Assembly: GCA_030653695.1 (NCBI GenBank) | Contig: JAURYY010000080.1 | Location: 1-47,571 of the forward strand | Length of the DNA: 47,571 nucleotides | DNA from: Paludibacter sp. | GTDB lineage: Bacteria > Bacteroidota > Bacteroidia > Bacteroidales > Paludibacteraceae | Direction of reading: 5' to 3' | Part shown: positions 7,893 to 47,571 of the stretch, one piece after another | Layout: the number at the start of each line of letters is the position of its first letter | How positions within the stretch are numbered: the first letter of the stretch is position 1 | Translations under genes and position numbers: made by a program | The notes under the pieces: generated by a model | The model's input: only the letters and a program-made list of their open reading frames with translations | Told to the model about the DNA's origin: nothing | The model's database searches: none

Positions 7893-9852
7893 TCTGAACG
7901 AATTTACCCTACATTTGATGCAAAATGGGACAACGGAAAAACTACGAACTGGGCTTTAGATAACGAACCCAAAACCTTTACGTCGAACGATTCGGTACTC
8001 TTCAACGATGATGCATTATGGAAATCGGTTCTGATAAATGAAAGTGTTTCCCCTTCTTCCATTTTAGTCGAAAATACAACACAATATACATTTAGTGGTA
8101 CCGGTTCGATCGATGGAACAGCCCGGATTACTAAAAATGGAACCGGAAAACTCATCATGTCAAATACAAATAAATATACAGGCAAAACAATCATCAACGA
8201 AGGAATCATTGAAGTTTCGACAATTACTAATGGCGGTGTAGCATCGCCCATTGGTGCATCGACCAATGCTTCTGAAAATCTTGAATTGAATGGTGGACAA
8301 TTAAATTACACAGGAGGATCGACGACAATTAACAGAGGAATTACCTTAGGTTCTAAAGGCGGCAGTATTTCTGTTGCAAATTCAGCAACAACGCTCACTA
8401 CTTCAGGAAGAGTTGCCGGAAATGGAAAATTGATCAAAGAAGGATTAGGACGTTTTTCGTTTTCAGGGGCTAACACTTATACAGGGGGAACTATTATCAG
8501 ATCGGGATCAATAGCATTGACAACCGATGTAGCTAACTCATCTGGATTAAGTGCTGATACCATAACATTACAAGGCGGTTCATTAGTTATGTTCGATAGT
8601 AGAACAACCACAAATACATCCACATGGAAACTGAATATTCCGGCGGGAAGTACAGGAACGCTTATAACTGATGGTAATTCAACTATTGCAGGTTTCATTC
8701 TTGGTGGAGGAACTTTAAATTATTTCACCAATTTCACAAGCAATGTTTTAAATTCGGATGTCTCTATGTTTGCAGGTACAATTAATGTAACTACCGATGC
8801 TGTTGGAGGCAGTTTCGGGCTTAATCATTCGAAAGGATGCGAAAATGTCAAAATTAATTTGAACAATTTGGTTACAATGCTGTATCGAACCACATCAAAT
8901 ATTACCATACCGGTGGGCGATCTCACAGGTTTCTCTAATTCGGGTTTAGGAGCTGGCGGAACAGGTCCGTGTACCATAACCTGGGAAATTGGTGCCCGCA
9001 ATGCCAATTCATCTTTTAACGGAAAAATAACAGATGCACAATTCAGCGGAACCGGTGCTGTGGCTGCTATCCGAAAAGTCGGGACAGGAATATGGACATT
9101 AAACAATAGCAATACTTACGGTGGCGGAACAACTATTATGAGTGGTACTTTGATGGTAAATAATGCAACAGGAAGTGGACTTGGAACCGGAGCAGTAAAC
9201 GTTTTAGCCGAAGGAACACTCTCAGGAACAGGTTCTGTTTCAGGAAGCGTAACAGTGAGTGAAGGTGGAGTTCTTTCGCCCGGAAACGGAATTGGAACTT
9301 TTACAATAAATAACAACGTTAATATTCAGCCGTCGGGAGTGTTTTTGGTCGAAATTGATAAAACCAATGTGAAAAATGACCAGTTAAACCTTACAGGAAC
9401 GCTTACCATAAACGGAAAACTCCAAATCACTTCGATCAACGACATTCCTTTTGCAGCAGGTGATTCATTTTAAAATAATTAATGGCACAGTAAATGGTAC
9501 TCCCTCCGAAATTGTTCCGAATATACCGGCTGTTGGACTCGAATGGGATTTGACCGAATTTGTTTCGGGAGGAGTTATGAGAGTGAAAACCGCTACGGGC
9601 TTCAATCCTTTGGAAGTTAATTCAAAGATTTTTCCGGTTCCTTGCCAAAACATATTGAATATTCAGCTCGGTAATGTTACCGGTGCAATGCAAATATCTG
9701 TTGTTAATTTATTGGGAGTTGTCGATATTTCGCAACAATTTGAAAATCAAAATCAAATTATTCTGAATGTAGAAATTCTGCCGAAAGGAATTTATATTTT
9801 GCAAATAAAAAACAATGACAAAACAGTAAGCTACAAATTTACTAAGGATTAA
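7893..9852 (+). pseudogene. 5'-truncated, frameshifted T9SS-secreted protein with autotransporter-associated beta-strand repeats
   Basis: Three K.G.G.(L/F/W).....N.Y.G.T.I repeats. The frame is open from 7893 with no ATG until 8157, which is mid-repeat. An extra T in TTTT (9468-9471) separates it from a T9SS type-A CTD (IFPVP...LPKGIYILQI...KFTKD, ending 9852). Confidence 0.8.
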
Positions 9853-9912
9853 GGATTTAAAATCTCAAATTAAACTTTCAATACAAATTTAGTGTTAAAT
9901 AAATTTCCTGCA

Positions 9913-10024
9913 TCTTGTCTTGATTCTTGACTCTTGTCCCGATAGACTTCGCCGATAGCTATCGGCGTGAGCTCAGTCGAACGCTCAGTCGAACGCTATC
10001 GGGATGGCTCTTGGCTCTAATATC
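9913..10024. repeat. Composite nested palindromic repeat in a TTGACTC-like heptamer array
   Basis: TCCCGATA-GACTTCG-CCGATAGCTATCGG-CGTGA-(GCTCAGTCGAAC)x2-GCTATCGGGA at 9937-10004. An inverted homologue lies at 45912-46003. Confidence 0.9.
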
Positions 10025-10040
10025 CAGTATTGTTACATTA

Positions 10041-10649
10041 TTATTCAACCAATAGTCCGGCACCTTCGCGTACAATTTCAGGTTCGTCGCCGGTACAGTC
10101 GATAATGGTCGAAGGTGTCAAACCGCCAAATCCGCCATCAATTACCAAATCGACTTCATTGCCGTATTTTTGTTCAATTAGTTCGGGGTCAGTGATATAT
10201 TCAGTTGTCTCTTCGTCCGTAAATATTGAACTGGTCATCATGGGGTTTCCTAATTCTCGTACAATTTCGAGCGCAATATTATTGGCAGGCATCCTGATTC
10301 CCACCGTTTTTCTGTTTTTAAATAGTTTGGGAAGTTTGCTGCTTCCGTTCAGAATAAATGTAAAAGGTCCGGGAAGATTCTTCTTCATCAACTTAAAATC
10401 AACATCATCCATTTTCGCAAATTCACTGATTTGACTCATCTCATGACAAACGAACGAAAGATTGTACCTTCGTAAATCCTTGTTTTTCATTTTCGAAATT
10501 TTCTCCACACCTGCTGGATTGAAAATATCGCAGCCAAATGCATACACCGAGTCGGTTGGGAAAATAATGATTCCACCGTTACGCAACACTTCTGCCACAT
10601 GACGGATTTGAGCCGGATTCGGATTATTATCGTAGAGTTTAATAAGCAT
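10041..10649 (-). CDS. Sua5/YrdC/YciO-family protein (threonylcarbamoyl-AMP synthase-like)
   Basis: Motifs IFPTDSVY, LPGPFTFIL, TVGIRMP, VIDGG and PSTIID...IVREGAG. Confidence 0.9.
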   Translation of the reverse strand: MLIKLYDNNPNPAQIRHVAEVLRNGGIIIFPTDSVYAFGCDIFNPAGVEKISKMKNKDLRRYNLSFVCHEMSQISEFAKMDDVDFKLMKKNLPGPFTFILNGSSKLPKLFKNRKTVGIRMPANNIALEIVRELGNPMMTSSIFTDEETTEYITDPELIEQKYGNEVDLVIDGGFGGLTPSTIIDCTGDEPEIVREGAGLLVE

Positions 10650-12120: not shown

Positions 12121-12153
12121 GTCCCGATAGCTATCGGCGAAGTCTCACGGGAT
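12121..12153. repeat. Partial composite palindromic repeat
   Basis: GTCCCGATAGCTATCGGCGAAGTCTCACGGGAT shares CCGATAGCTATCGGCGAAGTC with the composite at 45959-45979. Confidence 0.85.
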
Positions 12154-12422
12154 AAAAATCAAGACATTTAACCAAGTTACAAAAATAAATAATCACCGTG
12201 TTATTGTGTGTTTTGAACATTCTTTAATCATTCATGATTCAACTATTTATAATATTTTTTTTGTTTCAACTGTTCAATTTTCAAACTTTATTTTTTTAAT
12301 ACTTTTTGAAATTGAGTATTCATCGTAAAATTTTTATTTTTATGTTTACAACTTTTGAATTAATTTATTATATTAATTTGTAATGCATTAATATATTGCA
12401 TATTAAATCTGGGTTCTTGAAT

Positions 12423-20067: not shown

Positions 20068-20139
20068 TCCCGATTCCCGATTCCCGATTCCCGATAGCTA
20101 TCGGGAATCGGGAATCGGGAATCGGGAATCGGGACGGGA
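20068..20139. repeat. Concentric palindrome (TCCCGAT)4-AGCT-(ATCGGGA)5-CGGGA
   Basis: Read directly; 20068-20127 is a perfect 60-bp palindrome. Confidence 0.97.
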
Positions 20140-41019: not shown

Positions 41020-42507
41020 ATGGAAACTTTTTTAATCAGAGCATTACAGTTAATTCTCAGTTTATCGATTTTGGTGTTTTTACACGAATTCGGTCATTTT
41101 TTCTTTTCAAGGCTTTTCAAAGTACGTGTTGATAAGTTTTATATGTTTTTCAATCCGAATTTTTCGCTGATACGGGCAAAAAAAATCAACGGGAAATGGC
41201 AGATTAGATATTTTGCAAAGAACGTGCCGGCAAATGAACGCCCCAAACACGATGCCAACGGAGATATTTTGCACGACTCGAAAGGCAAAACAGTGTATGA
41301 ACCCATCCCCTTAAATGAATTATCGGATGACGATTGGCGCAAATATCCCGAAACTACAGAGTGGGGTATCGGTTGGTTACCATTGGGCGGATATTGCAAA
41401 ATTGCCGGAATGATTGATGAATCGATGGATAAAACACTTATGGCTCAGGTACCTCAAACCTGGGAATATCGATCACGACCTGTATGGCAACGACTCCCGA
41501 TTATTATCGGTGGTGTGTTGGTCAATTTCATTTTGGCACTGGTCATTTATTCGGCAGTTCTCTTTACTTGGGGAAAGGAATATCTACCTTTTGAAAATGC
41601 CAAATATGGACTTAATTTCTCTCAAACATTTTTAGAAAATGGATTTAAAAACGGGGATAATATTATTGCAATTGATGGACAAACTGTTGAACAACGCTCA
41701 GATGTTATTGAAAGCATTTTAATTGACGGGAAACAAAATGTTACCCTGTGGCGCGATGGACAGAAAGTGGAAATACAACTTCCGTCGGATATTGCTCAGA
41801 AAGTATTAGCGAGTGAAGAATTAAATTTAGTTTCAGTACGTTACCCTTTCGTTATCGAAGAGGTCTCAGCCGGAAGTCCGGCTGCGGATGCTAAACTTCA
41901 GCAAGGTGACAGCATTGTTGGCATTAATGGGAAACATTTGTTCATATTTCAGGATATAGCTGCGGAGTTAGATGCCTCGAAAAACGCTAAAATCGAAATT
42001 TCGTATTTTCGTAACGGTCAGTTAATGCAATCTGAATTGCAGGTAACTGAAAACGGGAAACTTGGTGTGGGATTAAAATCACCATACCAGTTTTTTCAGA
42101 CTAAAAAAATCGAATATGGATTTTTTGAATCAATTCCTGCGGGCATAAGTCTCGGATGGGAAACACTTTCGAGTTATGTGAAACAATTTAAACTTGTGTT
42201 TTCAAAAGAAGGCGCTAAACAGCTGGGTGGTTTTGGGGCTATTGGAAAAATGTTTCCAAAATTTTGGGATTGGCAAATTTTTTGGTCCATGACGGCATTA
42301 CTTTCTATTATTCTTGCATTTATGAACTTTTTACCCATACCGGCTTTGGATGGCGGTTATGTGTTATTCCTGCTTTACGAAATGTTTACCGGACGAAAAC
42401 CTACCGATAAGTTTTTAGAGTATGCTCAAACAACCGGAATGCTACTTTTAATGGCACTTCTGATTTTTGCCAACGGCAATGATATTTTTAGGGCAATTTT
42501 TAAATAG
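41020..42507 (+). CDS. rseP: RIP metalloprotease RseP (M50) with PDZ domains
   Basis: Motifs HEFGH, PLGGY and NFLPIPALDGG. Confidence 0.96.
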   Translation: METFLIRALQLILSLSILVFLHEFGHFFFSRLFKVRVDKFYMFFNPNFSLIRAKKINGKWQIRYFAKNVPANERPKHDANGDILHDSKGKTVYEPIPLNELSDDDWRKYPETTEWGIGWLPLGGYCKIAGMIDESMDKTLMAQVPQTWEYRSRPVWQRLPIIIGGVLVNFILALVIYSAVLFTWGKEYLPFENAKYGLNFSQTFLENGFKNGDNIIAIDGQTVEQRSDVIESILIDGKQNVTLWRDGQKVEIQLPSDIAQKVLASEELNLVSVRYPFVIEEVSAGSPAADAKLQQGDSIVGINGKHLFIFQDIAAELDASKNAKIEISYFRNGQLMQSELQVTENGKLGVGLKSPYQFFQTKKIEYGFFESIPAGISLGWETLSSYVKQFKLVFSKEGAKQLGGFGAIGKMFPKFWDWQIFWSMTALLSIILAFMNFLPIPALDGGYVLFLLYEMFTGRKPTDKFLEYAQTTGMLLLMALLIFANGNDIFRAIFK

Positions 42508-42605
42508 TTGATTGGTTGATTGGTTAATTGGTTAATTCGTTAATTCGTTGATTGGTTAAATCGTTGATTGGTTTCCCGATAGCTATCGGGAGGTTAATTG
42601 GTTAA
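42508..42605. repeat. Tandem octamer array (TTRATTSG) interrupted by a perfect TCCCGATAGCTATCGGGA (42574-42591)
   Basis: Eight units at 42508-42571, then TT-[18-mer]-GG, then TTAATTGG TTAA. Confidence 0.95.
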
Positions 42606-46003: not shown

Positions 46004-46086
46004 TCCCGATTCCCGTCCCGATTTATCGCGAAAACCCAAACCCGAAACCCGAAACCCGAAACCCAGCATATTCTGATTTATCGGGA
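46004..46086. repeat. Cluster of TT-core palindrome variants and an AAACCCG heptamer array
   Basis: TCCCGAT-TCCCG-TCCCGATTTATCGCGA (46004-46031), (AAACCCG)3 at 46038-46058, and TTCTGATTTATCGGGA (46071-46086). Confidence 0.85.
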
Positions 46087-46580
46087 AAACGCGAAACAAT
46101 GATTGTATTAAATCATTTGATGTTGAATTTCATGCAAAAATAAAGAATTATTTTCAAATTATTCAATCTGAAAGGTACAATTTTTTTTGTAGGAATAATT
46201 CAAGAATAAGAATTGGACGCTTTATTAACCCATTAGCACAACTTGCTGATTAATAATTCCTTTTATTTCACCCACATTGTAAACAATTAAAACAGTAGGA
46301 TCGAAGGTGAAATTGAGTAATGAGCAAAAGTTAAACACAAGATGGAGTATAAAGTTCGTCAGGATTTGCTTGTTTGGAAAGTAGATAATCCTAATGGTGT
46401 GATGAACGCTATCGGCGAAGTATAGTCAATCAATTACCGATAAGTAAGATGTTGTAAAAAGAAATCTCTGAAAAAAGCCGGTATCAACTAACTTAGAAAA
46501 ATTAATTTTCAGCCGTTTGTGCCCGACTCTGTTCAGGAATTCTTTTTTATTTCAAGAAAATATAAACTGCGAATAGGAAA

Positions 46581-47321: not shown

Positions 47322-47571
47322 TAGTACATGACAAAAATTATATAGCGATATAATTATTTGATATTCAATAAAATAGTTGTCTTTTTATTTGGTAAAGACC
47401 TTGAAATTTCGTATCTTTATAGCTAATTATCAATCAGTTATAATGAAAACGAAAGATTCCAAGGTCTCGCACAAAAGTAGTGATTTAACCTCAGTTTTGG
47501 TTGAGCACTTCGGTAAAAGTTTAAACTTAGCCCGTATAAGGTTCATTAGTTTGTTTATCTGTGCTCTTTGT
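47322..47571 (+). mobile_element. Left end of an IS (probably IS4 family) with the transposase N-terminus from 47443, cut by the window edge
   Basis: Manual translation from ATG 47443 gives MKTKDSKVSHKSSDLTSVLVEHFGKSLNLARIRFISLFICALC, recalled as a Bacteroidota IS4-type N-terminus (not searched). Candidate terminal repeat TAGTACATGACAAAAA from 47322. Confidence 0.65.

Follow-up and report, generated by a model that had tools for sequence, protein, structure and literature searches.

The locus at positions 9913 to 10024 of the window, by which we mean the whole 47,571-nt stretch of Paludibacter sp. DNA that was analysed (contig C128 of a 3.69-Mb assembly with 36% GC), raises the question of how several layers of short repeats came to be stacked inside one another, and which of these layers is the unit that moves. 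The locus probably represents two tiny non-coding elements, here called X and M, inserted successively by copying into precise targets with an enzyme from elsewhere. X is an 18-nt palindrome composed of the halves TCCCGATAG and CTATCGGGA, and M consists of a 13-nt left half and a 12-nt right half. Such stacks number well over a hundred in this genome and have likely spread by copying into precise sites.

The initial annotation described a nested composite of three layers, and the split outer palindrome, the inner palindrome within a second module and the doubled right half are all present (Table 1). The parts follow one another as left half of X, a 38-nt form of M, an additional right half of M and right half of X, with GCTCAGTCGAAC read directly twice at 9971-9994. 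We infer that the second right half is either left over from another nested M or arose by slippage. Two convergent genes face the locus with their 3' ends, an ORF encoding a T9SS sorting domain that ends at 9852 and a Sua5/YrdC gene (10041-10649, minus strand) whose stop is 16 nt from the end of the right flank. The former belongs to a region (8157-9852) where a PATR-repeat protein and the T9SS tail occupy two overlapping frames, which suggests a single frameshifted gene. Two Logan contigs, covering 9700-9961 and 9977-10300 without differences, support both ends and the doubled right half; they stem from the probable source run and so are not independent. As none of the contigs listed bridges 9961-9977, an extra 13-nt unit may possibly have collapsed in the middle of the locus.

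Table 1. Features of the composite locus, related copies in the window and filled recombinase or transposase genes elsewhere in the genome
Position	Strand	Feature	Remarks
9913..9936	-	Heptamer array, host sequence left of the insertion	CAAGA-type units on the minus strand; host type elsewhere empty or filled
9937..9945	.	Outer 18-nt palindrome X, left half TCCCGATAG	Direct read and comparison of empty with X alleles
9946..9971	+	Left half of M, usual length 13 nt, plus 13 nt from the inner palindrome	Hallmark of the 38-nt M subfamily
9950..9967	.	Inner 18-nt perfect palindrome	X variant with CG/CG ends
9972..9983	+	M right half, 12 nt, copy 1	
9984..9995	+	M right half, copy 2	
9996..10004	.	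Outer palindrome X, right half CTATCGGGA	
10005..10024	-	Heptamer host flank	Terminates in the common GA(C/T)ATTAGA motif
12121..12153	-	X with only a 13-nt M piece, just upstream of purA	Chimeric or slippage-reduced form; same form on C295
45912..46003	-	Inverted partner: heptamer host, X and 38-nt M with one right half	55 nt upstream of a nagB-like gene
46004..46031	-	Second stack next to the partner: 5- and 7-nt palindrome layers round a GATAAATC core	Direct read
46409..46421	-	Isolated exact 13-nt piece of the 38-nt subfamily	Remnant; too short for BLAST scoring
C10, C13, C32, C34, C80, C83, C95, C278		Filled integrase remnants	Loci L065-L075
C261:3197, C196:123		Filled Y1 pseudogenes, with a subclass 2.6-like motif by our own reading	
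C284:3984-4532		Intact Y1 gene	

An Rfam scan of 9700-10200 returned no family, no terminator- or promoter-like site was found at 9800-10100, and a search of sequencing runs gave no RNA run among the matches listed, the sole matching run possibly being the source sample. An orthologous empty allele was not found, the DNA downstream of yrdC being unalignable in 14 congener loci. Downstream of yrdC one congener (L014) has a decayed X that lies within another array, of 8-mers, and is apparently of independent origin.

Counts across the genome give the composite its context. Exact matches number 155 for CCGATAGCTATCGG and 95 for GCTCAGTCGAAC, with none for the reversed-pattern controls, so the composite is not a product of chance. 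X is present in 103 exact copies, and tokens of X or M occupy 91 loci, 71 of which hold at least two. The uninterrupted inner module that the initial annotation had reconstructed exists on its own, as 26 exact 25-mers here and in 13 further genomes out of 300 from the order, each of a separate genus. M enters at AG^CT, which is both the centre of X and the centre of M itself; AG precedes it in 64 and CT follows it in 61 of 68 matches in this genome, self-nested copies included. Nested M occurs in both orientations, with inverted nests on contig C32 and, in another genome, at L010, and such nests as well as arrays with two left and two right halves follow from insertion of M into itself. The inner palindrome has 17 exact copies, every one within M, in varied flanks and once in a host other than X (C15); it therefore appears to mark a 38-nt subfamily of M, likely moving whole, and not a fresh event at each site.

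The two halves of M are equally numerous in 40 of 60 arrays (permutation mean 26.5, maximum 38 in 10,000, the copies not all being independent) and unequal in the other 20. Only 12 of the 32 multi-unit arrays are balanced, so slippage or half-events must be common and single units must also be gained and lost. The 5- and 7-nt layers round X are often one-sided, and some X arms run on into perfect fold-backs of the flank. When folded as DNA, X gives a strong hairpin and M a weak one that is no better than its shuffles (z +0.59).

Several further structures were observed alongside these. X-type cores within 5- and 7-nt layers (TCCCG, TCCCGAT), at 20068-20134 and 46004-46031 of the window, form a second self-nesting series with more than 100 junction matches genome-wide. 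A plain X splits an 8-mer tandem array at 42492-42600, and additional plain or degenerate copies lie near 1772, 3218, 24084 and 29201. An ORF at 47377-47571 that runs off the contig end presumably resembles the start of a transposase. One main host of X and M is a non-coding multi-copy element of 150-300 nt, often at contig ends (C202:1-298 and about 30 similar places). A variant of M with a double change, in which a G-T pair is replaced by A-C, recurs across genomes (G000:C144:3914, C153:2981, L010, G576, G573 and G602), in G-run hosts where the flanks are visible.

Mobility is recorded in allele series among near-identical paralogs. One family comprises five empty copies, one with X, one with X and M and four with X and two M; a second comprises eight empty copies, two with X and two with X and M; and a third is represented by C73, C13 and C34. 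The heptamer host ending in GA(C/T)ATTAGA is found both empty and filled (12 matches), and its filled forms hold plain X or M in either orientation. The target loses 4 nt to X in four families, 5 nt in another four and 3 nt in one; these allele comparisons show no target duplication at the ends of X, and the empty paralogs contain no seed of it. Insertion of M lengthens the target by 25 nt at AG^C or, in some cases, AG^G, and leaves no more than an imperfect 2-nt duplication. The first base of M varies with the target, the left base being G in 10 of 14 copies with right flank GG versus 3 of 91 otherwise, a count that includes related hosts and some overshot array ends; this covariation fits a 2-nt stagger or a heteroduplex. 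The flanks of X show a weak A/C-rich bias (3.0 bits, against a poor, self-repeating control). Variants of X are spread over more than one host family, so strict allele-to-allele copying cannot account for all sites.

That two micro-elements insert into each other, as first proposed, is borne out, and they are independent elements, since genome G576 has 12 copies of M and zero of X while G303 has 30 copies of X and zero of M. Of 250 genomes sampled at phylum level 23 contain the X core, and 22 of these belong to the same class; among 60 congeners 33 have it, with 1-51 copies each, and across the genus its copy number runs from 0 to 155. M is also present in four viral-collection contigs, and among its 41 matches in other genomes and viral contigs AG precedes 35, the hosts being unrelated hairpins and repeats. 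In another genome X forms one consensus helix of bacterial RNase P RNA (L047:1251-1667; P9 by our own reading), which is consistent with tolerance of hairpin-for-hairpin insertion. Variants of X lie at L045:1763 and L048:1502 in sequence that is tRNA-like by eye (a T-loop-like fragment and a long variable region), with no Rfam call there.

The surprising part, and the one newly seen here, is repeated precise insertion into diverged integrase genes. In 8 of 12 close paralogs of a gene of the tyrosine recombinase/integron-integrase type (NF040815; three distant XerC/D-like rows are not counted), the same CCCC/GGGG variant of X is found at the identical nucleotide, where it replaces the five bases that precede the Tyr codon in the TT-EI-YTH motif. 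We take this residue, from established family knowledge, to be the catalytic tyrosine. Contigs C122, C222 and C274 hold the right junction of the filled site only. The genes themselves have diverged: third positions account for 708 of the 1112 pairwise base differences among filled copies, on both sides of the insert, and of 50 codons compared between C10 and C80, 31 differ synonymously and 2 nonsynonymously. A tree of 15 rows and 151 columns rejects the filled integrases as a single clade (p-AU 0.00026). Third-position diversity at the junction codons (0.48-0.57, in a table without C13, a near-copy of C34) equals that further out and is not lowered at this site, and no co-conversion of the flanks was seen there. 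Six of the filled integrases also contain M in one orientation, and six of the seven copies of that M variant sit there. The filled junction has 11 matches in this genome and none in 250 family-level relatives. The simplest reading of these sequences would be precise repeated copying from a common donor, within the lineage and after the integrase genes had diverged, and the within-genome case for repeated targeting is strong. In the literature searched, largely outside subscription papers, we found no account of the X or M sequences or of recurrent targeting of a recombinase catalytic codon, and the papers matching a full-text motif search were, by title and abstract, on other subjects. We also considered that X might be bypassed by the ribosome or spliced out of the integrase mRNA; this was rejected, as five coding bases are lost and most of the filled copies are 3' remnants, one of them containing a stop.

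The same integrase site was examined in other collections. A pattern demanding extra bases there matched in 10 named genomes of which nine, from Bacteroidota and Nitrospirota, carry micro-elements of about five kinds (one a decayed X) and one a plain duplication. The metagenomes gave 37 matches, many of them near-copies: 29 hold 22-23-nt inserts of two kinds, 7 resemble duplications of local sequence and 1 has no relation to the others. In viral contigs both the test pattern and a control pattern with the gap at another codon gave zero. A cross-genome hot spot is suggested, the genome and metagenome counts covering the test pattern alone and the control pattern being confined to the viral contigs. 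At loci L051-L060 and L076-L112 the elements observed in these few bases are unrelated 20-25-nt hairpins or REP-like elements of other Bacteroidota, Nitrospirota and metagenomes. In the present genome X or X and M also fill two pseudogenes of a Y1 transposase just before the HUH motif; their identity to the intact copy is 88% and 71%.

By behaviour X and M resemble small dispersed repeats (SDRs) and may be regarded as a Bacteroidota form of such micro-elements, the likeness being one of description. SDRs have units of about 21-27 nt, lie embedded in heptamer arrays and nest in themselves. At 25 nt M falls within this range and at 18 nt X lies slightly below it. Like SDRs, X and M are scattered over many contexts that have nothing in common, with both filled and empty sites, and lie in tandem heptamer arrays, and M is nested in its own copies, a look expected for SDR-type elements. 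The repeats SDR1-8 of Nostocaceae, from the 2008 work of Elhai et al., are cited in PMC5861425, PMC4390886, PMC2884548 and PMC3116915; the third of these describes dispersed units of about 20 bp in variable tandem number, and the second places SDR5 between bases 3 and 4 of HIP1, to which the fixed position of M within a short palindrome (AG^CT) may be compared. Unlike SDRs, X and M reside in Bacteroidota and not in cyanobacteria, and X replaces 3-5 nt.

Other known systems share some of these properties. Bacterial MITEs are non-autonomous, have inverted ends and are detected through empty and filled sites, but measure about 80-400 nt, have direct target repeats and share their ends with insertion sequences (PMC3184786), whereas X and M are 18-25 nt long, X deletes target bases and neither element leaves more than the imperfect duplication noted above. 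The GC42 clusters of yeast mitochondria are ORF-less GC-rich hairpins in AT-rich DNA that use an AG target dinucleotide and merge or shuffle into composites by an unresolved mechanism; they differ in their organellar location, their length of 42 nt, a putative target duplication and co-conversion tracts, which X at the integrase site lacks (PMC4478555). With REPs, REPINs and RAYTs the elements have in common that they are short, extragenic, palindromic and non-autonomous and reach high copy numbers that vary among lineages (PMC3116915, PMC6006769 and PMC3733652).

This last likeness brings up the reading of X and M as ordinary REP sequences of a cognate RAYT, that is a REPtron, spreading as REP doublets, which we consider improbable. 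The genome has seven Y1_Tnp matches; upstream of one Y1 gene an X variant lies within the REP hairpin, and X is also present in the two Y1 pseudogenes. PMC6006769 describes REPs inserted into tnpA-REP genes of subclass 2.4 and, for subclass 2.6 of Bacteroidetes, atypical hairpins. However, none of the seven Y1_Tnp matches is flanked by X or M on both sides, direct reading of X and M reveals no GTAG, GTGG or CGTC tetranucleotide foot, copies are single or nested and the allele series move as single units with no spaced inverted REP pair, and the targets themselves include REPs. Nor does Y1 presence track X: all 8 X-rich congeners have Y1 genes, and so do 12 of the 15 that lack X (20 of 23 overall).

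The inverted partner near the other end of the window bears on a second reading, advanced in the initial annotation, that the composite of about 100 bp and its heptamer flanks form a MITE- or REPIN-like unit copied whole. The partner aligns from 46000 to 45912 with 9924-10024 (E=9e-24, flanks included), the single 12-nt gap corresponding to one right half instead of two, and the partial versions are also genuine, with E=1e-9 for 12121-12164 and an exact 13-nt match for the second piece. The partner ranks first of 234 sites in 20-nt flank similarity, tied with a plain-X site at 16 nt, shares orientation and 38-nt subfamily with the composite, and has outer ends that are inverted repeats, so that the claimed likeness of the flanks stands for this pair and one shared copying event may possibly explain the pair's sequences. 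As a general copy unit the composite fares poorly: these flanks recur in only 2 of 71 module loci, other composites having unrelated flanks, the heptamer host occurs empty and with M both ways, and X makes no target duplication. Flanks diverge more than the interior (5/33, counted by eye, versus 3/56 substitutions), a difference that is not significant (p=0.14). Copying of the whole composite thus has little probability, and what generally moves is X, M or the 38-mer.

Retro-copying of the elements from RNA, by a reverse transcriptase of group II intron or retron type, has a slighter probability again. An RNA template would fit the absence of co-conversion and the place of X in an RNase P RNA helix, and RNA-mediated movement is proposed for yeast GC clusters in PMC4478555. 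Against this, RVT_1 had no match in this 98%-complete assembly and none in four of the six congeners with at least 30 X copies, one more giving a sub-threshold match only (multi-copy reverse transcriptase genes can drop out of such assemblies), and the orientation of M is unrelated to gene direction (17 versus 14). That the structures are immobile and were made locally, palindromes by template switching and tandem 12/13-mers by replication slippage, draws on the unequal arrays, one-sided layers and fold-backs but is hardly credible and is refuted for the first insertion by the presence of identical 18- and 25-base sequences in hosts that are unrelated and in genomes from separate families and by empty paralogs without an X seed, being plausible only for later gain or loss of units.

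Under the preferred reading of successive insertion, X would first have entered the heptamer array; a 38-nt variant of M, having earlier taken up an X, would then have entered X; and one more right half would have been gained by nested insertion or slippage. At each step the target would be nicked or cut, a short single strand copied from a filled site or an element end would pair with it, and the paired copy would be written into the target without flanking bases. X and M are likely selfish and tolerated as hairpins, with no host function indicated.

The odds are about even that the activity comes from host repair or annealing proteins or from another enzyme of no named class. A stand-alone HUH/Y1 (RAYT-like) protein is the most likely single class, tentatively held, and a reverse transcriptase seems unlikely. 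The AG before M is C^T on the opposite strand, which may correspond to the cleavage preference of HUH nucleases. A four-helix-bundle protein (PF05635) is encoded in 57 of 61 genus genomes, and as both this gene and Y1 are too common, their presence cannot discriminate the enzyme. GIY-YIG domains have seven matches in the genome, with no X or M flanking the four loci examined, and the ORFs neighbouring X and M show no enriched family and no enriched transposase.

A wider proposal, which we regard as speculative, is that unrelated 18-25-nt elements of Bacteroidota and Nitrospirota share an ORF-less homing by means of a base-pairing guide, with the site before the Tyr codon of integron-type recombinases as a common hot spot. 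The filled site or the element ends would guide the hairpin into the same nucleotide of synonymously saturated paralogs without co-conversion, and the resulting knock-out of integrases and HUH transposases might act as a brake on mobile DNA. As far as we found, the movement of DNA pieces of fewer than 30 bases is unresolved for SDRs and organellar GC clusters alike, and this genome offers a clean series of empty and filled sites, a defined AG^CT target and a conserved coding target that is hit recurrently. If short base-pairing without co-conversion directs the targeting, X and M would represent a new route of guided insertion and possibly a natural control of integrases; otherwise they would constitute a well-documented SDR-like family of the Bacteroidota.
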